NCBI GenBank assembly: GCA_934660865.1
Contig: CAKUIA010000001.1
Coordinates: 90,001 to 122,000 of the forward strand
Direction of reading: 5' to 3'
DNA from: an uncultured Opitutales bacterium
Lineage (GTDB): Bacteria; Verrucomicrobiota; Verrucomicrobiia; Opitutales; Intestinicryptomonadaceae
DNA length: 32,000 nucleotides
Below the pieces are notes generated by a model, which did no database searches, was not told where the DNA came from, and worked only from the letters and a program-made list of their open reading frames with translations. A program made the position numbers and the translations under genes. Shown here in pieces: positions 2,849-15,997 of the stretch. Numbering within the stretch: the first letter of the stretch is position 1; every line of letters starts with the position of its first letter.

Positions 2849-3263
2849 TGGTATCCTTTTTGATAATCCGTAAAACCTGGGCTTTATTTTCCCTAAAAAA
2901 TAACACCCTTATATGCTTATCGATAGAATACTGCTTTAGCTTTAACTTTTTTAAAAAATTGCAGATAAAACAGCTACAACTTATTCCGGAAAAAAATTTA
3001 TCCGCGTTCTGCAAACACACGAATAAGTCTATGCAAAAATTATTAAATTTATATATTACTAAAACGACGCCCGATATGCCGCTCTTCCCGTAATCCAAGC
3101 CATTCTTTGAGTCGCAAAAAAACAAAATATGGGCAGCAAACAAACTGCAGGCGTTTTGCATGGCTTAAACTAACATGCACCCCCCCATAAAAACATTAGT
3201 ACAACAAAGAGACTTTTCTTTAATACAAAAAAGAAAATCCCTAAAAATGCACCTCCATTAAAG

Positions 3264-6071
3264 CTATAACCTTACATTAACGGGCTTATAGGTGTTGAAA
3301 AACACTTTTTCGTTATACTCTTTCAAAGAATCTACCCAAGCGTCAATATCCCGTATATCGTCGGATTCGTCCATAAGATTTTGGGCGCCAAGCTTCAACA
3401 GCATAAATTCATTTTCCATATTTGTCGGGAATATAGCAGGGTCGTCAGTATTTATACATACGTTAATAATGTTTTTTCTTACCTTGCTTTCGTTGAATTT
3501 TCTGTCCAACCAACTGCGGACCGGAGGGTTCCACCTAAATACCGGGTGTTCTTCAATCGAATTAAGACCGCCTATATAAATGTTAGACGAAGGGCAAACT
3601 TCCAAAATTATGCCCTTCTCGGCATATTCGTTTATTTTTAAATCCTGAACGGCGCGCACTGCATTTATATACATTTTTAAGTTTATTTCTTCGTTAAAAA
3701 TGCCGTCCCACAACACCTCGCCATCATTCTTTAAATAAAGGCATTTGTTTGCCTCTTTAAAAAATTCCTGACTACAGTTGTAATATTGAAAGATTTTCGA
3801 CTCTGGGCTGATACGCTGTCCGTTAAATTTTTTATCGATATCGGGAACCAACTCAAAATCGTCCGTATTCCTTAATTGCTCTATTTTGTCTTTGCTTAAA
3901 ATCTTGTTCCAAATAATCGGGCAATTCCGCCTAAGTTTCCAGGCATCAAAAATCGAGTTTATATCTATTGCGGCAGACCCGTTTAATTCAAATATTCCGC
4001 CGTACAACTCTTTGGCGATTTTTACCGCCAACTTTTCGCACCATATTGCCATCGGCAAAAATTCCGAAAGCCCCGATTTTGTTAATTGCGCGTGCAACCA
4101 AACAAGATTGTCCAGATAGTTTATTTTTGAAATGCGAATTACCGTTTTTTTTGAATACCATTTAAGCGGATCTACGCCCAATGCCAGCGCGTGCGAAATT
4201 CTGTCGTTTTCGCCATAAGACAAAAAAGTTATAGTTTCGTCTATTCTTCGCAACCCGGTAATTATGTCTTCAAAGTCTTCGCCGCTATGGAACAATTTTT
4301 CGAGCGGTTTTATTGCGGGCGCATTCTTCATGGTTTCGGCGCGCATTTTTTGCGCCGCGTGCATTTTTGCAAGACGCCTTAGATACGGCGCATATACTTC
4401 GGGAGGGACATCTTCTTCGTTGCCGGCCGCGTCAACTCCCGTAATTGAGCGAATAAGGTCTATTCTTTCGTTGTATTGTGCAGACGCATTATTTGCATTG
4501 TCTCGTATTCTATCGACTACGGATTTTGCACAAACCAACGATTTCGATGAACCCGCAAATTTAAAAAATTTGTTGCAAAAATTTGCAAGCGCCTTGCGCT
4601 TTTCCTTTTCAAGGAAATTTTTTGCGCTACCGTCAAGCGATTTACTTTTATTATAGTGGTATACAATCGAAAATTTAATGGAATCTTTGGCAATTCCGTT
4701 TTTGCCGCAATATTTATCTATCTCATTTTTTGTTCTTTTAAAAATAAGAGGTATTTCGGTTTCGGGATTTTGCATTCCAACCCTAAGCTGCAGATTTTTT
4801 ACCCCCGAATTTAACGTGCACCTAAGGCCTTTTATAGGCATATTGTTGCAATCGAGTTTGCGAACGTGCGACGAAAAGTATTTTGTAAAAAACTTTAACC
4901 CGTTGCTGGCCGACATAACCGAATAACTCCGTATTAGGTTTATTTGATTTATCAGCATAAGTGCAAGGGGAGAATCTTCTGAATTTGCGTCGGGTCCGAA
5001 TATCTTTTCCCATAGGAACATCAGAAAATAGAAAAAACTTACTTCGTTTTGCACCGAAAAATATTTTATCGACTCCGATAGCGGAAAATCCGTACAAACT
5101 CCGATTTTTTTCAGCGAGCTTAACGAATAGGCATTTAATATTTTATTTGTCAAGTGTCCCGATTCGCGTATATTGCGCATTATCTCGGTTTTTTTTAGCA
5201 AGCTTAACAAATAGGCATTCAATATTTTATTTGTCAAGCGCCCCGATTCGCATATATCGCGCATTATCTCGGTTTTTTTCAGCGAGCCTAACAAATAGGC
5301 ATTCAATATTTTATTTGTCAAGTGCCCCGATTCGCGTATATTGCGCATTATCTCGGTTTTTTTGTTAGTAAGACAATTCACATGTTTCCAAATAAGAAAT
5401 CGCGCACAATTACCGAAAATATTAAGCATTGCCGACGGGCACCCCCACAACGACATATCTCTATCAACATCCGGAGGATATTTATCGCCTTTGGGAGCCG
5501 GCATTCCGTCAATGCAAGCCATAATAGATTCAAGGCTGGGATACGCACCGTTTATATGTATGTGGTTTTCGGAATGCCTCGGCGTTTTATCGCACGAAAT
5601 TCCAATGTGGTCTAGGTTTAACACTATACGGTGCAACAACTGTTTTGACAGCAGTGGTGTTTCAAATTTATCCTGTGCCCACAGCGAAATAAAACAGTAT
5701 GGGTGAAAATCTCTTGCAAACACGGCAAATTCGTTTCTAAGCTTAGGCTTGCAAGTAATATTTGTGCCCGAAAGCTCCCAAAAGTGCTCAAAACTCCTTA
5801 ATAGAGGGGCTTTATTTATAACCGAATTATTGCCGGAAAAATACATTTTCGACGGGTTGTTCTCGTCGAAAGTTCCGAGCAATTCGGAATATCTCGCCGA
5901 GTTTTCCCCTTCTGCAACCAAAACCTTTTCAAAAATTTCGTATAGTCGTTTGTTTGAAGATGTATCTATTTTAAATTCGCCTGTAAATACGCAATCAAAT
6001 AGATATCGCGCCATTTTCGCACTTCTGAGAATGGGCAATAACTCGAATTCAAACAGACTTCTTTGATACAT
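3264..6071 (-). CDS. rdrB: Divergent adenosine-deaminase-fold protein with large insertions (935 aa); RdrB-like effector of a RADAR-type cassette
   Basis: All ADA-family motifs occur in the canonical order. They are NHIHING (H170/H172, nt 5556-5564; cf. HVHLDG), GVDAAGNEE (aa 545-553; cf. IDLAGDE), FHSGED (H595/E598, nt 4278-4289; cf. VHAGE), RISHALA (H627; cf. LGHGY), EVCPSSNIYIGG (aa 824-835; cf. EICPWSSYLTG) and CINTDDPAIF (D876/D877, nt 3438-3449; cf. SLNTDDPLIF). The gene lies directly downstream of a P-loop NTPase gene on the same strand. The symbol reflects architecture only and is not HMM-verified. Confidence 0.75.
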   Translation of the reverse strand: MYQRSLFEFELLPILRSAKMARYLFDCVFTGEFKIDTSSNKRLYEIFEKVLVAEGENSARYSELLGTFDENNPSKMYFSGNNSVINKAPLLRSFEHFWELSGTNITCKPKLRNEFAVFARDFHPYCFISLWAQDKFETPLLSKQLLHRIVLNLDHIGISCDKTPRHSENHIHINGAYPSLESIMACIDGMPAPKGDKYPPDVDRDMSLWGCPSAMLNIFGNCARFLIWKHVNCLTNKKTEIMRNIRESGHLTNKILNAYLLGSLKKTEIMRDICESGRLTNKILNAYLLSLLKKTEIMRNIRESGHLTNKILNAYSLSSLKKIGVCTDFPLSESIKYFSVQNEVSFFYFLMFLWEKIFGPDANSEDSPLALMLINQINLIRSYSVMSASNGLKFFTKYFSSHVRKLDCNNMPIKGLRCTLNSGVKNLQLRVGMQNPETEIPLIFKRTKNEIDKYCGKNGIAKDSIKFSIVYHYNKSKSLDGSAKNFLEKEKRKALANFCNKFFKFAGSSKSLVCAKSVVDRIRDNANNASAQYNERIDLIRSITGVDAAGNEEDVPPEVYAPYLRRLAKMHAAQKMRAETMKNAPAIKPLEKLFHSGEDFEDIITGLRRIDETITFLSYGENDRISHALALGVDPLKWYSKKTVIRISKINYLDNLVWLHAQLTKSGLSEFLPMAIWCEKLAVKIAKELYGGIFELNGSAAIDINSIFDAWKLRRNCPIIWNKILSKDKIEQLRNTDDFELVPDIDKKFNGQRISPESKIFQYYNCSQEFFKEANKCLYLKNDGEVLWDGIFNEEINLKMYINAVRAVQDLKINEYAEKGIILEVCPSSNIYIGGLNSIEEHPVFRWNPPVRSWLDRKFNESKVRKNIINVCINTDDPAIFPTNMENEFMLLKLGAQNLMDESDDIRDIDAWVDSLKEYNEKVFFNTYKPVNVRL
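5111..5362 (-). repeat. 3 x 84-bp head-to-tail tandem repeat, in frame inside the deaminase ORF
   Basis: Units are 5111-5194, 5195-5278 and 5279-5362. My hand alignment gives 4 (unit 1 vs 3) and 6 (unit 2 vs 3) differences per 84 nt. They encode three 28-aa units, KKTEIMRNIRESGHLTNKILNAYLLGSL / KKTEIMRDICESGRLTNKILNAYLLSLL / KKTEIMRNIRESGHLTNKILNAYSLSSL (aa about 237-320). Confidence 0.95.
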
Positions 6072-6080
6072 TTTACTACT

Positions 6081-6239
6081 TTATTTTAAGGCTTTTTTTA
6101 GAGCGTCAAAAACCGCCTCTGGCAATTTTTTGCGAACGCGTCGTTCCCAACTTTTTGGCAGTGGTTTTATTGTTTTTAAATCATCAAACTCCGCTGAAGC
6201 GCGTATGCGCCCAAAAAGATCAGAATCATTTATTCCCAT
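6081..6239 (-). CDS. Small ORF (52 aa) between the ATPase and deaminase genes; below the 60-aa cut-off of the ORF track
   Basis: Hand translation gives ATG at 6239 and TAA at 6081-6083: MGINDSDLFGRIRASAEFDDLKTIKPLPKSWERRVRKKLPEAVFDALKKALK. Same strand as the flanking genes and ends 9 nt before the deaminase ATG. No clear RBS, so coding status is unproven. Confidence 0.3.
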   Translation of the reverse strand: MGINDSDLFGRIRASAEFDDLKTIKPLPKSWERRVRKKLPEAVFDALKKALK

Positions 6240-6313
6240 TTTCTTCAACTGTTTTATGTATTTAGTTTCGCTTTTCCCTGAAAAATTTGATTAACATGTT
6301 AACGTTAAGATTC

Positions 6314-8710
6314 TTATCCATCTATCAACACGACTCCCGGAAATTGTTTCTTCATTTCTGATTGATTCTTTTCATCTTCACCATTCTCATTATCATCATT
6401 TTTCTCATTATCATCATTTTTCCCATTATCATCATTTGTCAATTCAAAGACTTCAAGCAAACACTCTAGGAAATTTTGCATTAGGGTTTTATTCTCTTTG
6501 CCATCCAAATTATATTTATTCACGAAAGATTTCAAACACTCTATAATTTTTTTTGATTCTAGTATAGATAAATTAAGCTGCTCCCAACTGCTAATATTCC
6601 ATTTATACGCCATATCTCTTTTTCTCAATTCAGGTACACTTTCAGTGCTTAAACAGATATTGTTTTTAGAATATCTTTTATTTTGTGTAGAAGCCAAAGC
6701 AAACGCGTTTACATAAACTATTATTAACTTTTTTACGAATTTCGAAAACTGAAATTTTTCTGAACCCTTTTCTGTGCTCTTTGGATTTGATTTCTTAGCT
6801 TTTGATTTATTAGATCCTTTTTTCATCTCAGAAAGAATTGCATCCACATTCGCCCTGAACTTGCCGTACATACAATAAATAAATGATGCAGAACAAGCAA
6901 TTTTTTCAAAACTCTTTAATTCATCTACAAATAGTTCCTTGTTCGTTATCTCTTCGTACTTAATTCGTTGATAATCGTCGGTCAATTCTTTGTCATTTTT
7001 GTCATTTTTGTCATTTTCGTCGTCATCAAAATTGTTGCCATTGATATTTTGCACTCTTTTGTAGTCGTTCATGAATATTTCATTATCGAAACCAAATGAA
7101 TAGTTTTCCTCATCATTTGCAATATCCGACGGAGAAAATAGTTTAGCTGTAATCCACAAGAAAAACTTATCCGGCGAAACATAAATTCTGGAACCATTCG
7201 GAATATCCGCCTCATAAGTTATTATATAAAACAACTTCTCTAGATTATTTTCTGGATTTTCGAAATTGTTTTCATTATTTTTGCCAGTTTTTGGATAGTA
7301 TGCAAGCAGTTTATTTTGTGGTTCAGAATACGGAAAATACTTTTCGATATCCGAAAATTTTGCAAAGCGTTTTACGCTGAAATTTTCTTCAACTTCTTTG
7401 TCTTTAAGGTCTATTTGGCTTTCGCCGCCGTAGGCATTGCAATTTGCCTTTGCAAAGTCGAATATAGTTCTATCGGTAGTACCGCCACCATATTCATAAA
7501 AATCCATAATGCGTTTATTTAAAAGTGCATAACTTATGTTTTCTTTGGCAAACGCGTCTTTTACTTGCGCTAAAAATTGGAAAAACTCCCTTAGGTTATT
7601 AAAAGGAACAGGGGCGTCTTTGCTGTTAAATATGTTGTTATCGCGCATTAAATATCCGCAATTTAAATTAAAGCTTTCTTTTATCTGAGCTACTATATTC
7701 GATATGGATTGCTCATTCCATTTATGCCCTTCATTTATTTTTACGCTGATACTTTCATCTTTTACTATGTCGCGCACATTTATCAGCCTTATCCTTCTAT
7801 TTCTCGGCAAAACTTTTTCCAAATACCTGTCGCTTAAATCATAGCTTTTCGAAATAAAATACATATCTTTGGCTTCGGAATCGTTTTCGGCTTTAGCTTG
7901 AGATATACGATCGATTTTTGAATACAATCTTTTAATTCCTTCGTCCGAAATCCTGTCGTTATGGGTCATTTGGCGGAAGAATTCTATTGTAAATATCCTG
8001 TGATACATTTCGATATCGCCCGAAATAACGGGCATAATATAGGGAGTTGCCAAATATTTCCTAATCTTTTCCAGAACCTCAAACCCGTGAATAAAAGACA
8101 TATCAATATCGTCTATAGGCAATACAAGGAAGGAGCATTTCAATACATCTACGGCTTTTTTCATTAATTCGTGTATGCCCTGCTCAAGATTTAGGGCATT
8201 TTGTTCGTCTAAGATATTGTCTAAACCCGTAGATTTTTTCGAATTGCAAATAGCTTCGCTAAGCTCGGCAACCTCCGAAAGTTTGTTGAAAAATTCCTTC
8301 GCCGAATCCCCGTTTCTGTCGCTTAGTAAATCCAAATTGCGCTTTTTTACGGTATCGGCAATTCTTCCGAGTACAATCGAAAGGAAATTGTCGTTGTCGT
8401 GAATTAGCGTTGGGTCTATAATATCCAATATATACGGAGGGTTTTCCAGCTTGCCTTTTATTGCGGTCTTTATGTTTAAAAGAAACGTCGTTTTTCCGCT
8501 TCCCCTTTCACCCGATATAAATACGGAATTATGGCTTCGCAGAGCCGGATACGTTTTTTCTTCCGACTTCTTTATTTGCCCTACATGTGCATTTATTATT
8601 TCCAACAACCGCGAAAATGCGGCATTTTGCAATATATTTGAGGCTTCCGAAAAAGCCTCGGGGTTTAAACTTTTATTTAAATCTATTGTAATTTTGTTGA
8701 GTGTTGCCAT
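6314..8710 (-). CDS. rdrA: Large KAP-like P-loop NTPase (798 aa); RdrA-like partner of the deaminase
   Basis: Walker A GERGSGKT (aa 67-74, nt 8489-8512). Walker B-like FLVLPIDDIDM (aa 194-204, nt about 8108-8131), resembling the KAP-family hhhIDDLDR motif. A long, mostly helical-looking C-terminal region contains D/N/K/E low-complexity tracts. The gene sits immediately upstream of the deaminase on the same strand. The symbol reflects architecture only. Confidence 0.7.
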   Translation of the reverse strand: MATLNKITIDLNKSLNPEAFSEASNILQNAAFSRLLEIINAHVGQIKKSEEKTYPALRSHNSVFISGERGSGKTTFLLNIKTAIKGKLENPPYILDIIDPTLIHDNDNFLSIVLGRIADTVKKRNLDLLSDRNGDSAKEFFNKLSEVAELSEAICNSKKSTGLDNILDEQNALNLEQGIHELMKKAVDVLKCSFLVLPIDDIDMSFIHGFEVLEKIRKYLATPYIMPVISGDIEMYHRIFTIEFFRQMTHNDRISDEGIKRLYSKIDRISQAKAENDSEAKDMYFISKSYDLSDRYLEKVLPRNRRIRLINVRDIVKDESISVKINEGHKWNEQSISNIVAQIKESFNLNCGYLMRDNNIFNSKDAPVPFNNLREFFQFLAQVKDAFAKENISYALLNKRIMDFYEYGGGTTDRTIFDFAKANCNAYGGESQIDLKDKEVEENFSVKRFAKFSDIEKYFPYSEPQNKLLAYYPKTGKNNENNFENPENNLEKLFYIITYEADIPNGSRIYVSPDKFFLWITAKLFSPSDIANDEENYSFGFDNEIFMNDYKRVQNINGNNFDDDENDKNDKNDKELTDDYQRIKYEEITNKELFVDELKSFEKIACSASFIYCMYGKFRANVDAILSEMKKGSNKSKAKKSNPKSTEKGSEKFQFSKFVKKLIIVYVNAFALASTQNKRYSKNNICLSTESVPELRKRDMAYKWNISSWEQLNLSILESKKIIECLKSFVNKYNLDGKENKTLMQNFLECLLEVFELTNDDNGKNDDNEKNDDNENGEDEKNQSEMKKQFPGVVLIDG

Positions 8711-8732
8711 AGCGTTAATCTTTTAAATGCAC

Positions 8733-8761
8733 AAATATCTTATTAACGCGATTTTTGTCAA
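8733..8761 (-). promoter_or_regulatory. Candidate sigma70-like promoter for the ATPase-deaminase cassette
   Basis: Read on the minus strand: TTGACA (8761->8756), a 16-17 nt spacer, then GATATT/ATATTT (8739->8733). This is about 25 nt upstream of the ATG at 8710. The -10 element is weak and the host promoter consensus is unknown. Confidence 0.25.
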
Positions 8762-8912
8762 GATATATTTTTAGATGGATTATGAAATCGCACAAACCTA
8801 AAGCAAATATGCAAAATAGCATTGAGTATAACACATACATTACCTTATGTGATATATATAAAGTTTTTGCCTAAAATATATACAATTTGAGTGCTAGAAT
8901 CTCCCGTTTTCA

Positions 8913-9191
8913 TTAAAAAACATTGGGATATTTTTCGTCTATCGTGCTTAAGATGTATATGGCAATAGATTCACGGCTCGATAATCTCAAATGTGCAGAC
9001 ATAGCCGCCACAAACAACGACTTTAGATGTAATAAAGGCAATGTTTTGCCTTTGCATTTCGGCAAAAAAGCATTGTTTTGCGCGATAAATTGCGGTTGGA
9101 TTAGTTTTAGCAATCCGCCTATGTCTTGCGCCTCTAAAACGAAGGAAAAAAGGAAAACCGACAATATCAAAAGGCATATTTTCGGCTTCAT
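8913..9191 (-). CDS. Small secreted hypothetical protein (92 aa)
   Basis: Signal-peptide-like N-terminus MKPKICLLILSVFLFSFVLEAQ. Starts 18 nt downstream of the preceding minus-strand ORF. Confidence 0.4.
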   Translation of the reverse strand: MKPKICLLILSVFLFSFVLEAQDIGGLLKLIQPQFIAQNNAFLPKCKGKTLPLLHLKSLFVAAMSAHLRLSSRESIAIYILSTIDEKYPNVF

Positions 9192-9208
9192 TTACATTCC
9201 TTTTTATA

Positions 9209-10012
9209 CTATTGCCAAAAAACTTTTGCGTTTACGCGCCCTTGGATTGCCTCAATAAGCGACCTGGTTCTTAAATCGAATTTCGAAAACTTTACTTTTT
9301 TGCCGTTTGCCGAAAATTCGATTTCAACGCTTTGCTCTTTTGCCAAAATTTTGTCTATATCGCTTTGCGAAAGTTTGTCGGCAAAAACACCGTTTATTTT
9401 CAAAATTTTTGCAGCGCCTTGCGGAATATCGGCATTGCCGGAATATAGATATTTGCTCCATTGGTCGTCGAAAAGCAAAGCATAGGAGTTATCGCTTTGC
9501 TTTTTAATTTTAAAGCCCCATTTGTAAGCTTTGCCCTTGTAGTTATCGTAATCGCAGTCTTCAACATAAGTTGGCTCGACATAGTCGGGAGAATTTTTGT
9601 CGAACACAAATTTGGTGCTAGCGGTTATGGTAGAGTTTTTGTAGGAATAATTTAATTTTTCGATTAGCACGCCCTGCTTTTTTATCAGCAAATCGCCGTT
9701 CGACAAATTAAAGCTTTTTTCGCCGTCTGTATTATCTGCAACATATTTGGCGGCTTGGGATACTTTCGACTTTAAAATTTCGTAATCTAAAGCGGGCTCT
9801 GCATTTGGCAAATTTGCAGCCTTTTGCCTTTTTCCGATTTCGAATAAATTTGTGGGCAATGGCTGCAAAAGTGTATCGACATTCAAATACGCCCCAAGCA
9901 AAAAACATAAATACATATCCGGATATGCCGTGCCAATGTTTGGGCGCAATCTTATAAAAGCGTTTTTATCTTTCGTAATCCCAAAAAGCATGCTTTCGCC
10001 CTTCGACAACAA
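9209..10012 (-). CDS. Hypothetical protein (267 aa as tracked, non-ATG start); probably the C-terminal part of a frame-shifted or split secreted-protein gene
   Basis: Long ORF with no signal peptide. The tracked start is TTG, and the ORF overlaps the upstream ORF (9952-10344) by 61 nt in a different frame. Confidence 0.45.
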   Translation of the reverse strand: MLSKGESMLFGITKDKNAFIRLRPNIGTAYPDMYLCFLLGAYLNVDTLLQPLPTNLFEIGKRQKAANLPNAEPALDYEILKSKVSQAAKYVADNTDGEKSFNLSNGDLLIKKQGVLIEKLNYSYKNSTITASTKFVFDKNSPDYVEPTYVEDCDYDNYKGKAYKWGFKIKKQSDNSYALLFDDQWSKYLYSGNADIPQGAAKILKINGVFADKLSQSDIDKILAKEQSVEIEFSANGKKVKFSKFDLRTRSLIEAIQGRVNAKVFWQ

Positions 10013-10344
10013 GCTGTATTTTGCGAGTATATGTAGGCAACCAAATTCGGCTCCGGTTCGCTTCTTTTTATTTTAAGCTCTATAGTGTTGTCTTTGCCCC
10101 ATACAAAAACTTCAACCTCGGTTTTTTGGTTGTTAACATTTTGCGTTATTTGTGTTTTAGACATAACAATGCCCTTTGCCTTATAGGCGGCAAAAAGTGC
10201 AGACGAAGCTTCGCCGTAGTCTAGCAAGTTTATAGCTTCCAACAACTTAACATTTTGCGCGTTCAAACAAAATGCGGCACAGAATGCCCACCATATAACA
10301 ATTTTAGCCAAGCGTTTCATTTTATCCATTTTTAGCGGTTGCAA
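9952..10344 (-). CDS. Hypothetical secreted protein fragment (130 aa); probably the N-terminal part of the same split gene
   Basis: Signal peptide MKRLAKIVIWWAFCAAFCLNAQ. The last about 20 residues (..CCRRAKACFLGLRKIKTLL) look like out-of-frame read-through. Confidence 0.45.
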   Translation of the reverse strand: MQPLKMDKMKRLAKIVIWWAFCAAFCLNAQNVKLLEAINLLDYGEASSALFAAYKAKGIVMSKTQITQNVNNQKTEVEVFVWGKDNTIELKIKRSEPEPNLVAYIYSQNTACCRRAKACFLGLRKIKTLL

Positions 10345-10455
10345 ATATCTTGTATCTTTAGGTACAAAATAGACGCGTTTATTTTATATGTCAATAAAAT
10401 ACTGTTTATATAAATGTAGGTATTATTTGGCCAAAACAAAATTTTATAAATAAAA

Positions 10456-10914
10456 CTAAAGCGTCGCCGTTTTATTTGTCCTTTCGGCAAGTTCCCGCAA
10501 AAAAAGCTTCTTTTGTTTGGGCGAAACAAAGGTAAATTTCTGTTCGCGCCCCAAAATATCGTTTGCCAGAAAAAATCCTTTTATTTCTTTTGCGTCCAAA
10601 TCTATTTTTATGCAGTCTGTAGACATTATCGGAGCTTTATATTTAAGCGGCATTTTACATTCGCCGAACGACAATATGTTTTTATACGGAATTTTCCCCT
10701 TTATAAAAGGCCCGCACCTGATTTCCAGCCAATTTTCGGCAAACACATACCTTATCGGGAAGAAAACCGCAAAAAGAGCCGACAGCACAAAGAAAAGTTC
10801 AAGAGCAGGCATTTTCCCCGTATTCGAAGGGCTTAAATAAATCGCCAAAAATACAAAAGGCACTGCCAATATTATGTAAAACCACCAATCAATTTTGGAA
10901 TTGTAAACTTTCAT
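10456..10914 (-). CDS. Small membrane protein with a bacterial PH-like domain (152 aa from the ATG at 10914)
   Basis: From MKVYNSKIDWWFYIILAVPFVFLAIY... there are two TM helices followed by a soluble domain (..IKIDLDAKEIKGFFLANDILGREQKFTFVSPKQKKLFLREL). This is reminiscent of the bPH/DUF1200-type family. The tracked 5' extension to 11097 has no supporting features. Confidence 0.55.
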   Translation of the reverse strand: MKVYNSKIDWWFYIILAVPFVFLAIYLSPSNTGKMPALELFFVLSALFAVFFPIRYVFAENWLEIRCGPFIKGKIPYKNILSFGECKMPLKYKAPIMSTDCIKIDLDAKEIKGFFLANDILGREQKFTFVSPKQKKLFLRELAERTNKTATL

Positions 10915-11141
10915 ACCCGCATACCTACCAAAATTGGCAGTGTATGTAAATAATATATTAATTGGCACAATTTTAAGCTTCGCAAAAAAAACGGTTTCTC
11001 CGCCGAACACACACAAATACCGCATTTGCATGCAAAAAACTTTTGCCTTACATAAAAAACGGGGCAGCTTCGCCTTAATGTACAAATTTAACGTCAAATT
11101 AAGGCAAAATTGCCCTACACAAAATCTATAGGAAAACTACC

Positions 11142-14485: not shown

Positions 14486-15997
14486 CTATTTTTTTGCGCC
14501 AACCGTGCGCTGAAACTGCGCCGCCTGCTGGCGGTTGTAGCGTTTCGAAAGCAGCAATTCGCCCGAAGTGCCGAACTGCCTAAAAAGCCCCACTTTGGTG
14601 TAGGAGGCCATAAGCCCCAAAAAATCGCCGCCTTTGGTAAACACCAAGTCGCCGCTAGAGGGGGTAAAATTGCCCAAAATCGCCGAAAAAAGCCCTACGT
14701 CGGCGGCGGCCAAATTCTGGTCTTTAACGTCTACATTATAGGGAAATTCGCCGTAGTAGAATTTTTTTGCGTCTATTACAACCGCCTGCGAAAACTTAAA
14801 GGGCTGACCGGAAATGTCGTAAACTTTAATTTTAGTTTTTTCTATAAAGCTTTTCGGGAGAGCCACAGCCATAACGCCCGCATGCGTCTTTACCCTAAAG
14901 ATAGACGCCGCGCCGAATTTAAAGCCGTTTGCCGAAACCGTAAGCGACATTGTTTCGGGGGGTATGAAATCGTGCGGATTTGCGTCGAAAAGCGTGTTTG
15001 CAACGCCTATCAAAGCCCAGTAGTTGCCGTTTGCCGAAATTGCCACCGCCTTTGTGGTATCCGAATATTTTATTTCGCCGAAAAGGCCTTTTCGCGTATA
15101 GTCTAAAGTTAAAGACACGACGTTTTTGCGCGCCTCTTCAAAAATTTCGCTTGCGGTAAGCGGGCGAATGTCCTTTACGTCTTGCGCCAATTTTTCGTTT
15201 TTTGCGGCAAGCTCGCCGACGCCTTCGGCGAGTTTTTCGGCGTGCTGCTGAATGCGCTGCTTTTCGGACTTTTCGGCCTGCACCATGGCCTCGGCCTTTT
15301 TAAGATTTTGCTCGTATATTTGCGATTTTACCGAGGCAACCTCGAGCCTTGCCGACAGCGCGCGTTTTTCAAGCTCTATTGCCCTGTTTTCGTTTTTAAG
15401 GCGTTCGCTTTCGCCCTTAAGTTTTTCCAAATGCGCCTTGTTGCTTTCAAGCTCGCCCTGCACCGATTGAAGCCTTGCCTTAAGGGTGCTGTCGCTTTTG
15501 TGCAAATCGCTAAGCTGCGCCTGAAGCTGTGCCCTGTCTTGCGAAGTTTTTTTAAGCTTTTCCATAGCTCCCGAAATTTCGCTTTGCAAAGCCATATTTT
15601 TTTCGTCGCCAAGCTTTACTTTTGCCTCCAAGTCGCGGCTTTTCCTTACAATCTGCTCCATTTCGGTTTGCAGCTCGCGCTTGCTTTTTTCCAAAGCGGC
15701 CAATTCGGCCTCGCGCTGGGCAATAAGCTTTTTTTGGCGCTCGCTAAGCTCGGCGTTTTTTTCGGCCTTTTCGGAAAAGCTGCTTACTTGTTTTGAAAGC
15801 TCGCCCCGCTGTTCGCGCTCTTTATCCAGGCTCATTTTAAGCAGGTCTACCAGTTGCGAATCCACAAAATTTTGCCCCAGCGACTGCGCCGTTTGCTGCG
15901 CGTCGTCGGTTTTTGTTTCGGCGCCCTCAAAGCTTACCATGCTAAGCATGCTAAGCAAAAGAAAGTCGCAAATTACAACCAATAAAGACCTGCTCAT
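14486..15997 (-). CDS. Membrane-anchored coiled-coil protein (503 aa), function unknown
   Basis: N-terminal TM segment (LLVVICDFLLLSMLSMV). About 250 aa of heptad-like E/K/Q/L-rich sequence. The C-terminal about 200 aa looks like a beta-rich globular region. Confidence 0.65.
   Translation of the reverse strand: MSRSLLVVICDFLLLSMLSMVSFEGAETKTDDAQQTAQSLGQNFVDSQLVDLLKMSLDKEREQRGELSKQVSSFSEKAEKNAELSERQKKLIAQREAELAALEKSKRELQTEMEQIVRKSRDLEAKVKLGDEKNMALQSEISGAMEKLKKTSQDRAQLQAQLSDLHKSDSTLKARLQSVQGELESNKAHLEKLKGESERLKNENRAIELEKRALSARLEVASVKSQIYEQNLKKAEAMVQAEKSEKQRIQQHAEKLAEGVGELAAKNEKLAQDVKDIRPLTASEIFEEARKNVVSLTLDYTRKGLFGEIKYSDTTKAVAISANGNYWALIGVANTLFDANPHDFIPPETMSLTVSANGFKFGAASIFRVKTHAGVMAVALPKSFIEKTKIKVYDISGQPFKFSQAVVIDAKKFYYGEFPYNVDVKDQNLAAADVGLFSAILGNFTPSSGDLVFTKGGDFLGLMASYTKVGLFRQFGTSGELLLSKRYNRQQAAQFQRTVGAKK

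Follow-up and report, generated by a model that had tools for sequence, protein, structure and literature searches.

Locus organization

The 32,000-nucleotide (nt) stretch of DNA analysed here at its full length, hereafter the window, comprises positions 90,001 to 122,000 of contig CAKUIA010000001.1 (assembly GCA_934660865.1) from an uncultured, probably Opitutales, bacterium, and carries on its minus strand two large genes that very probably encode a RADAR anti-phage system, that is an AAA+/KAP-like ATPase (RdrA) paired with an oversized adenosine deaminase (RdrB). The ATPase gene, rdrA, lies at 6314–8710 (798 amino acids (aa), ATG start), and rdrB follows downstream on the same strand at 3264–6071 (935 aa, ATG start); the 242-nt gap between them holds a 55-aa open reading frame (ORF) at 6081–6248. 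An initial annotation of this DNA, made from the letters of the sequence, had described two large co-directional minus-strand genes in an AT-rich block and proposed that they form a RADAR-like cassette, and the ORFs and base composition confirm the first part of that description: guanine-plus-cytosine (GC) content is 0.344 in rdrA and 0.395 in rdrB.

The AT-rich block as a whole (positions 2900–11100, a region without strand; GC 0.368, or 0.37 when rounded) contains rdrA, rdrB and four small or uncharacterized genes, and differs in composition from the remaining 21 kb of the window (0.469 for 11101–32000) and from the adjacent catalase gene (0.509). The block sits between this catalase gene and the GH129 and ClC genes, and the gene pair itself is flanked by catalase on its one side and by bPH_4, GH129 and ClC family genes on its other. 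Outside the block the window is ordinary chromosomal housekeeping sequence, with genes for FabD, glutamate dehydrogenase, GH2, Mla transport and efflux. Horizontal transfer is the apparent source of the RADAR pair, which would have entered the chromosome as an AT-rich insertion. A search with the exact catalase sequence for a strain lacking the island recovered the same arrangement alone, and a megablast comparison of the locus with Escherichia coli genomes gave no match. The host DNA belongs to a 205-kb scaffold of ENA assembly ERZ28614456.

The RdrA ATPase

Assignment of the 798-aa protein to the RdrA family is carried by profile searches, by a profile comparison with the Protein Data Bank (PDB) and by an AlphaFold model. 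It matches the PADLOC RdrA profile at 3.2e-43 and the NCBIfam family ‘antiviral RADAR system adenosine triphosphatase RdrA’ at 1.3e-72, and in a single-sequence search of the PDB the chains of E. coli RdrA were the sole matches (1.5e-12). As the single-sequence PDB matches span only part of each of the two proteins, family alignments were built, which for RdrA were A3 and A4 (36 and 49 sequences, respectively). The A3 profile matched E. coli RdrA (8hr7) at 2e-47 and Streptococcus suis RdrA at 6.8e-10.

The ATPase motifs are those of the family. Walker A (GERGSGKT, aa 67–74, with K73; positions 8489–8512, minus strand) aligns to G81/K82/T83 of E. coli RdrA, in the residue numbering of PMC9994260, and Walker B (LVLPIDDIDM, aa 195–204; 8099–8128, minus strand) aligns to E. 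coli D221/D222. An SGD sequence at aa 230–232 aligns to the sensor-1 TGD of the E. coli protein (D253), its D232 being nearly invariant, and R374 is probably sensor 2. Residues R69, G70, G72, K73, D200, D201, D203 and R374 are invariant in both family alignments.

Folds were compared by Foldseek searches with AlphaFold monomer models. The RdrA model is of moderate confidence (mean predicted local distance difference test score (pLDDT) 75.2, predicted template modelling score (pTM) 0.77), and its best PDB matches are the E. coli RdrA rings 8hr8, 8hr7 and 8fnt (E 5.6e-18, template modelling score (TM) 0.52–0.54, about 900 alignment columns), followed by S. suis RdrA (8fnu, E 6.4e-9) and then by unrelated AAA+ proteins at E of 0.03 or more. 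The model has the two-part architecture of RdrA, with an N-terminal AAA+ domain bearing a helical crown insertion, for which helices are modelled between Walker A and Walker B at aa 109–127, 134–156 and 163–190, and a C-terminal alpha-helical lobe. The C-terminal half gives almost no sequence signal, yet its predicted fold is RdrA-like. The C-terminus is truncated relative to the closest relatives, whose RdrA proteins are 835–864 aa long.

The RdrB deaminase

The evidence for the 935-aa protein is of the same kinds. It matches the PADLOC RdrB profile at 5.4e-67, the NCBIfam family ‘RADAR system adenosine deaminase RdrB’ at 1.1e-103 and Pfam A_deaminase at 1.1e-9; E. coli RdrB was the single PDB match below 1e-3 in a single-sequence search (3.2e-17), with an ordinary adenosine deaminase (6ii7) at 8e-3. 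For the RdrB family alignment (A2, 43 sequences) we drew on an exhaustive search with 271 cluster representatives at E ≤ 1e-30, and its profile matches E. coli RdrB (8fnw) at 3.7e-56 over residues 5–790 of 799.

This profile and the direct pairwise alignment place the catalytic elements of the deaminase, all on the minus strand, on their E. coli counterparts, whose residue numbers and roles we take from PMC9994260. In the profile alignment the metal ligands H170 and H172 of the HIH motif (5556–5564) align to H152/H154; in the direct alignment HSGE (aa 595–598; 4278–4289), in which H595 is a metal ligand and E598 catalytic, aligns residue for residue to H498/E501; the fourth histidine, H627 (4191–4193, in the SH at aa 626–627), aligns to H530; and NTDDP (aa 874–878, with D876 and D877; 3438–3452) aligns to GSDDP. 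Further motifs are DAAGNE (aa 547–552) and EVCPSSN (aa 824–830). Residues invariant across the 43 sequences include H170, H172, D547, G550, E552, H595, G597, E598, H627, E824, S829, N830, D876 and D877. All catalytic residues of the RdrA ATPase and the RdrB deaminase are intact, and every Walker and deaminase motif named in the initial annotation is present at the position that it gave. With the key residues invariant in the family alignments, the motifs did not match by chance.

The RdrB model (pLDDT 86.9, pTM 0.88) has E. coli RdrB as its best PDB match (8hr7/8fnv, E 2e-22, target-side TM score (TMt) 0.67–0.69), while ordinary adenosine and adenine deaminases and the CRISPR-associated deaminase Cad1 match at E of about 1e-4 or worse, the plain adenosine deaminases (ADAs) with partial coverage. 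Profile and model both recover the architecture specific to RdrB, in which an ADA core is preceded by an N-terminal extension and split by a large insertion, with a third insertion following the final histidine. The distance from HxH to HxGE, 425 aa, falls inside the family range of 333–460. By sequence and by predicted fold, both proteins thus belong to the RdrA and RdrB families; PADLOC, NCBIfam, Pfam A_deaminase and PDB sequence matches agree on the cassette that had been proposed, and the structural check suggested with that proposal gave the RdrA and RdrB cryo-electron microscopy structures as the best, full-length Foldseek matches of the two models.

Comparison with known systems

One known system for comparison is the RADAR of E. 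coli P0304799.3 (RdrA 947 aa, RdrB 799 aa; PDB 8fnt, 8fnv, 8fnw, 8hr7–8hrc), with which the window shares a two-gene rdrA–rdrB operon, both Walker motifs and both sensor motifs (1 and 2) of RdrA, a helical insertion between the Walker motifs where the ‘crown’ that docks on RdrB is located, an alpha-helical lobe at the C-terminus, and, in RdrB, the histidine tetrad, the glutamate, the Asp-Asp pair and three insertions, the structural match running over the full length. The two systems differ in that identity in structural alignments is about 14–16%, that RdrB is longer here (935 versus 799 aa) while RdrA has a shorter body (798 aa) without its former clade-specific tail, that a 242-nt gap separates the genes, and that the E. 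coli system is hosted by an enterobacterium whereas the window comes from an uncultured, probably Opitutales, host.

Much closer are three Opitutales-like loci, one from a metagenome-assembled genome (MAG; L004) and two from Logan assemblies (L002 and L086), in which RdrB is 68–73% and RdrA 60–62% identical to the window proteins, with matching domain layout and N-termini. These loci differ from the window in carrying the RdrA tail in frame and abutting rdrB (L002 and L004), in having a single copy (about 1.4 in P0002, the RdrB of L002) of a 28-aa unit that is repeated in the window RdrB, and in their flanking genes.

Cad1, the CARF-fused adenosine deaminase of type III CRISPR systems (9ofd, 9mmw, 8z40), is likewise an antiviral protein of ADA fold that converts ATP to ITP (inosine triphosphate), and its deaminase core matches that of the window RdrB weakly by structure and by profile. 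Cad1 is controlled by cyclic oligoadenylate through its CARF domain, whereas the window RdrB is paired with a controlling AAA+ ATPase; the Pfam search found no CARF family in RdrB, and the PADLOC match to CARF5--CARF_ADA (5.7e-7) covers the ADA part alone (aa 813–891), so that the protein falls outside the Cad1 family.

Distribution and mobility

Across one genome per species (185,579 species genomes), RdrB relatives occur sporadically, at no fewer than 430 loci, spread over many phyla and including at least one archaeon. Where enough upstream DNA was available, about 60 of 80 fetched loci have an RdrA homologue immediately before the RdrB homologue and in the same orientation, usually with a spacing of −40 to +13 nt, that is with overlap or near-abutment, as against 242 nt in the window. 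The genes around the pair vary from locus to locus: DUF1573, PLA2G12-like and GCE_fung genes flank it in L002 and PHO4 and PhoU genes in L003, and the catalase, bPH_4, GH129 and ClC genes described above flank it in the window. This sporadic occurrence with differing flanks points to a mobile gene pair rather than a conserved salvage locus, and the synteny check proposed earlier accordingly finds the rdrA–rdrB pair at some 60 loci of unrelated taxa with differing neighbours.

It is against this background that a more mundane explanation, a housekeeping purine-salvage adenosine deaminase next to an unrelated ATPase, has to be considered. The Pfam A_deaminase match and weak matches to NCBIfam adenosine deaminase equivalogs are what such an enzyme would give. 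The Pfam match, however, spans profile positions 220–291 of 330 only; the equivalog matches span about 90 C-terminal residues, at 43 bits against a cut-off of 426; and for Add itself (PF00962/TIGR01430), a single domain of about 330–370 aa, the TIGR01430 match reaches 41 bits where 217 are required and covers aa 813–896 only. RdrB is 935 aa long with RdrB-specific insertions, and the neighbouring ATPase resembles RdrA specifically and from end to end. The two genes are, moreover, AT-rich, and they occur sporadically and in varied genomic contexts. We regard this explanation as effectively refuted, and return to the reading of the pair as RADAR.

The closest named relative among the matches listed is L004, from Opitutales MAG RGIG9302 of yak abomasum (RdrB 68% identical), and metagenome assemblies hold about 25 clusters of close relatives (RdrA 57–63% identity). 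The RdrA relative of highest identity (P0177, 79%; L087:1-9746) is truncated at 688 aa with no rdrB after it. An AAA_14/DUF4143 gene on the opposite strand lies to either side of it, and the locus has the look of a RADAR system that has decayed or been disrupted. Elsewhere, in L012, L019, L023, L048 and L062, the best RdrA and RdrB ORFs lie 222–1285 nt apart or one partner is short (RdrA of about 460 aa in L012, a late RdrB start in L023), a pattern that hints at additional RADAR genes, frameshifted or split, in Vibrio, Helicobacter, Methanococcoides and Candidatus Spyradosoma.

A detached RdrA tail

The initial annotation had singled out three features as foreign to textbook RADAR, an intervening small ORF, tandem repeats in RdrB and acidic tracts in RdrA, and had suggested that the locus may be an undescribed variant or family. 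All three are present, and the first of them proves to be a piece of RdrA. In the nearest relatives RdrA (835–864 aa; 851 aa in L002, 844 aa in L004) ends 4–8 nt before rdrB, and its last 50–60 residues form a conserved tail (...SEL.KKII.S.EF...K.I.PFP..WW.....KKLPPQVYD.I.ANLGIK) that is recognizable down to clade members of about 40% identity and conserved in about 25 clade members. The window RdrA frame runs through the conserved ...LLEVFEL, then through an acidic repeat, and stops at 6314–6316. Beyond this stop, a tail frame opens at 6290 (detached tail 6081–6290, minus strand; open 6084–6290, stop codon 6081–6083), encodes ...TKYIKQLKKMGINDSDLFGRIRASAEFDDLKTIKPLPKSWERRVRKKLPEAVFDALKKALK before its stop and leaves 9 nt between its end and the start of rdrB. 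The 55-aa ORF is the part of this frame that begins at a TTG at 6248, with a further ATG at 6239. A profile of 20 intact RdrA tails matches the tail segment at E 2.5e-18, the next best of 839 six-frame window segments scoring 0.12, and the last 61 aa of the L004 RdrA align to the segment end to end at 43% identity. We conclude that the small ORF is no additional gene but the C-terminus of RdrA, now detached, and it is this extra DNA that makes the spacing of the pair atypical.

Between the RdrA stop and the tail frame lie 25 nt, and three-frame translations place TAA stops in all three frames of this junction (6289–6316, minus strand). Since the frame-1 stop (6314–6316) precedes the stop in the tail frame (about 6289–6291), the locus stands at least two mutations from an intact gene. 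For the same reason programmed frameshifting, which we considered for the window, was rejected: translation in the RdrA frame terminates ahead of the point where the tail frame becomes open, so a ribosome changing frame could not rejoin the tail. The small ORF is most likely a non-functional relic.

Exactly at this break between RdrA body and tail the junction carries two perfect, overlapping, TTAA-rich palindromes, TTAACGTTAA and TTAACATGTTAA, which might represent an operator or the scar of an insertion or excision event.

Tails have also been separated from RdrA elsewhere in the clade. In L003 the tail is absent altogether, and RdrA adjoins an intact rdrB, from which it follows that the tail may be dispensable. 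In a second group (P0161, P0168, P0171 and P0173, 813–821 aa; loci L086 and L088–L093) the rdrA genes all end ...NSELTKNNQIQ followed by a stop, because the reading frame shifts within a poly-A tract, AACAAAAAATAATC (L086:7420-7600), beyond which the conserved tail is still open in the +1 frame and a 128-nt gap precedes rdrB. This allele exists in four variants from several samples, about 90–98% identical over the first 500 aa, with the RdrA body intact in each. The ratio of nonsynonymous to synonymous change (pN/pS) in the detached tail of this group is about 1.0 (11 synonymous and 45 nonsynonymous pairwise differences, which are small numbers), and hence gives no evidence of constraint on it.

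These observations bear on whether the window copy is a working system or a decaying, inactive one, in which loss of the RdrA tail and of translational coupling disabled RADAR while the long ORFs have not yet been further damaged. Decay would account for a tail that is conserved down to members of about 40% identity being found here out of frame behind three-frame stops, and for the outlying 242-nt gap, and it has parallels among relatives in the truncated rdrA without rdrB of L087 and the frameshifted L086 group with its tail pN/pS of about 1. Set against these are the two ORFs themselves, fully open over 798 and 935 codons in AT-rich DNA with every catalytic residue intact, as well as the naturally tail-less RdrA beside an intact rdrB in L003 and the persistence, across several samples, of four variants of the L086-type allele in which the RdrA body is undamaged. 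We consider decay an unlikely account of the window and favour a RADAR system, perhaps an active one, with intact catalytic cores but without the RdrA tail and the tight coupling of its two genes.

A more speculative, and in our estimation distinctly improbable, idea is that the clade tail of about 50–60 aa is a separable regulatory module, uncoupled at least twice independently, which either would act in trans as a micro-protein (52–55 aa, from ATG 6239 or TTG 6248) or whose loss might retune the trigger threshold of RdrA.

In-frame repeats

Tandem Repeats Finder (TRF) detects in rdrB an in-frame repeat of 84 bp × 3.1 (5105–5363, minus strand; 92% matches, no indels) that encodes three 28-aa copies, KKTEIMRNIRESGHLTNKILNAYLLGSL, at aa 237–323. 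The repeat lies between the HxH and HxxE motifs, at the position of insertion 2, an element that in E. coli RdrB helps to form the 2-fold interface (PMC9994260), and it is modelled as helical with low confidence (pLDDT 51–64). The relatives’ RdrB proteins have one copy of the unit, or about 1.4 in P0002, and the repeat is a recent, private triplication.

In P0002 itself (L002:8540-11248), a 70%-identical RdrB, aa ~236–290 contain the partial second 28-aa copy, reading RKPKELRDIYES... and then RKSKELMRNIYESGHLTNKILNAYSLSSLKK; given this partial copy, the insertion 2 position appears to be prone to duplication in the clade.

The acidic tracts of RdrA correspond to two further in-frame repeats on the minus strand. 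The first, 9 bp × 3.7 (DENDKNDKNDK, aa 564–574; 6989–7021; TRF), falls in a stretch modelled at pLDDT below 50 (aa 558–576), where relatives have an acidic loop without a repeat. The second, 18 bp × 3 (NDDNGKNDDNEKNDDNEN, aa 759–776; 6384–6437; TRF, 97% matches), sits in the linker that precedes the relatives’ tail, a linker whose length and sequence vary across the clade, and the model has pLDDT below 50 at aa 761–798. The acidic tracts are short in-frame repeats, and the model predicts the loops that hold them to be disordered.

The suggestion of an undescribed variant or family is not supported by these results: the small ORF once belonged to RdrA, the triplication in RdrB is recent and confined to this copy and keeps insertion 2 within the length range of the family, the micro-repeats behind the acidic tracts fall where the model shows disorder, and the divergence of the window proteins is like that between validated RADARs. 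No repeat or small-ORF feature defines a subtype, and all of them are lineage-specific changes.

Proposed mechanism

RADAR has been characterized in E. coli, Citrobacter rodentium and S. suis (PMC9994260), and by analogy with those systems (PMC9994260) a heptameric ring of the window RdrA would dock by its helical ‘crown’ on a dodecameric RdrB shell. Upon phage infection RdrB would then turn ATP and dATP into ITP and dITP, which may poison the nucleotide pool and so halt phage replication in an abortive-infection-like manner. In the characterized systems the sensor is suspected to be the variable C-terminal lobe of RdrA, and in S. suis RdrA the last helices re-orient into a protein interface (PMC9994260).

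The mechanism of RADAR has itself been debated, RNA editing having been the first proposal (Gao et al., 2020, cited in PMC9994260), and one might accordingly suppose that the window encodes an active RADAR that edits adenosine to inosine in transcripts rather than deaminating free ATP and dATP. Besides that original proposal, the titles of PDB entries 8hra and 8hrb describe RdrA rings ‘in RNA-loading state’, which is consistent with such a role. The fold and active site of RdrB, however, are those of a mononucleotide adenosine/AMP deaminase and not of the ADAR type, the top structural matches outside RdrB are ADA, adenine deaminase and Cad1, and PMC9994260 reports massive accumulation of ITP and dITP with no strong evidence of editing. 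RNA editing is in our view highly improbable here, and deamination of free nucleotides remains the preferred activity.

Several observations weigh against the reading of this locus as RADAR, the debate over mechanism being one of them. The window clade is the most divergent in the RdrB sample, with a mean identity of 23% between the window RdrB and 39 other sampled family members versus 29% among those members, and identity to other RADARs is about 20–25%. Both proteins miss the NCBIfam equivalog cut-offs (245 versus 600 bits for RdrA, 348 versus 800 bits for RdrB), for which reason automatic pipelines would leave them unnamed. The 242-nt gap breaks the usual close spacing of the genes, RdrA lacks a tail that about 25 clade members have kept, and the copy could be inactive, given the decay seen in its clade relatives (the frameshifted L086 and the truncated rdrA without rdrB in L087). 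The defence role proposed for the clade as a whole, moreover, draws on sequence comparison and analogy. As to divergence, three experimentally validated RADARs share 22–28% mutual identity in their conserved parts (PMC9994260), which makes that of the window roughly normal for the family.

Neighbouring genes and other features

Upstream of rdrA on the minus strand, in the AT-rich DNA beside the cassette, are a 92-aa small ORF (8913–9191) and a 130-aa small ORF (9952–10344), both with signal-peptide-like N-termini, and a 267-aa ORF (9209–10012); a 185-aa ORF on the plus strand (627–1184) likewise has a signal-peptide-like N-terminus. Scans of the cassette-side ORFs (92, 267, 130, 213 and 185 aa) gave no PADLOC or NCBIfam match and, in Pfam, bPH_4 only, and the small ORFs among them had no homologue in the other fetched loci (L002–L083). 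The upstream small ORFs and the 185-aa ORF were considered as accessory RADAR or defence genes and rejected, there being neither family matches nor homologues at other loci; the small ORFs are apparently unrelated to RADAR. PADLOC and NCBIfam scans found no other defence gene beside the cassette.

A consensus scan yielded a candidate promoter-like site (TTGACA-16-GATATT; 8734–8761, minus strand) 24 nt upstream of the rdrA start codon, which we treat as a candidate and not as evidence, as such sites are no more numerous in the region than in shuffled sequence, and a candidate terminator-like hairpin downstream of the rdrB stop codon (3133–3148, minus strand). Further away, between the ClC channel gene and FabD, a 503-aa protein (14486–15997, minus strand) has weak coiled-coil-type Pfam matches to DUF7491 and ATG16, below cut-off.

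Significance

The locus extends the RADAR catalogue to an uncultured lineage, whose nearest named relative among the matches listed is an Opitutales MAG. Beyond this extension it is an ordinary instance of a characterized defence system, and its one small curiosity is the recurrently detached RdrA tail. The divergent RADAR family to which it belongs, left unnamed by the NCBIfam equivalogs, is useful for probing the true constraint on the parts of RdrA and RdrB, and its natural tail-plus and tail-minus variants could help to probe the role of the RdrA C-terminus in trigger sensing.

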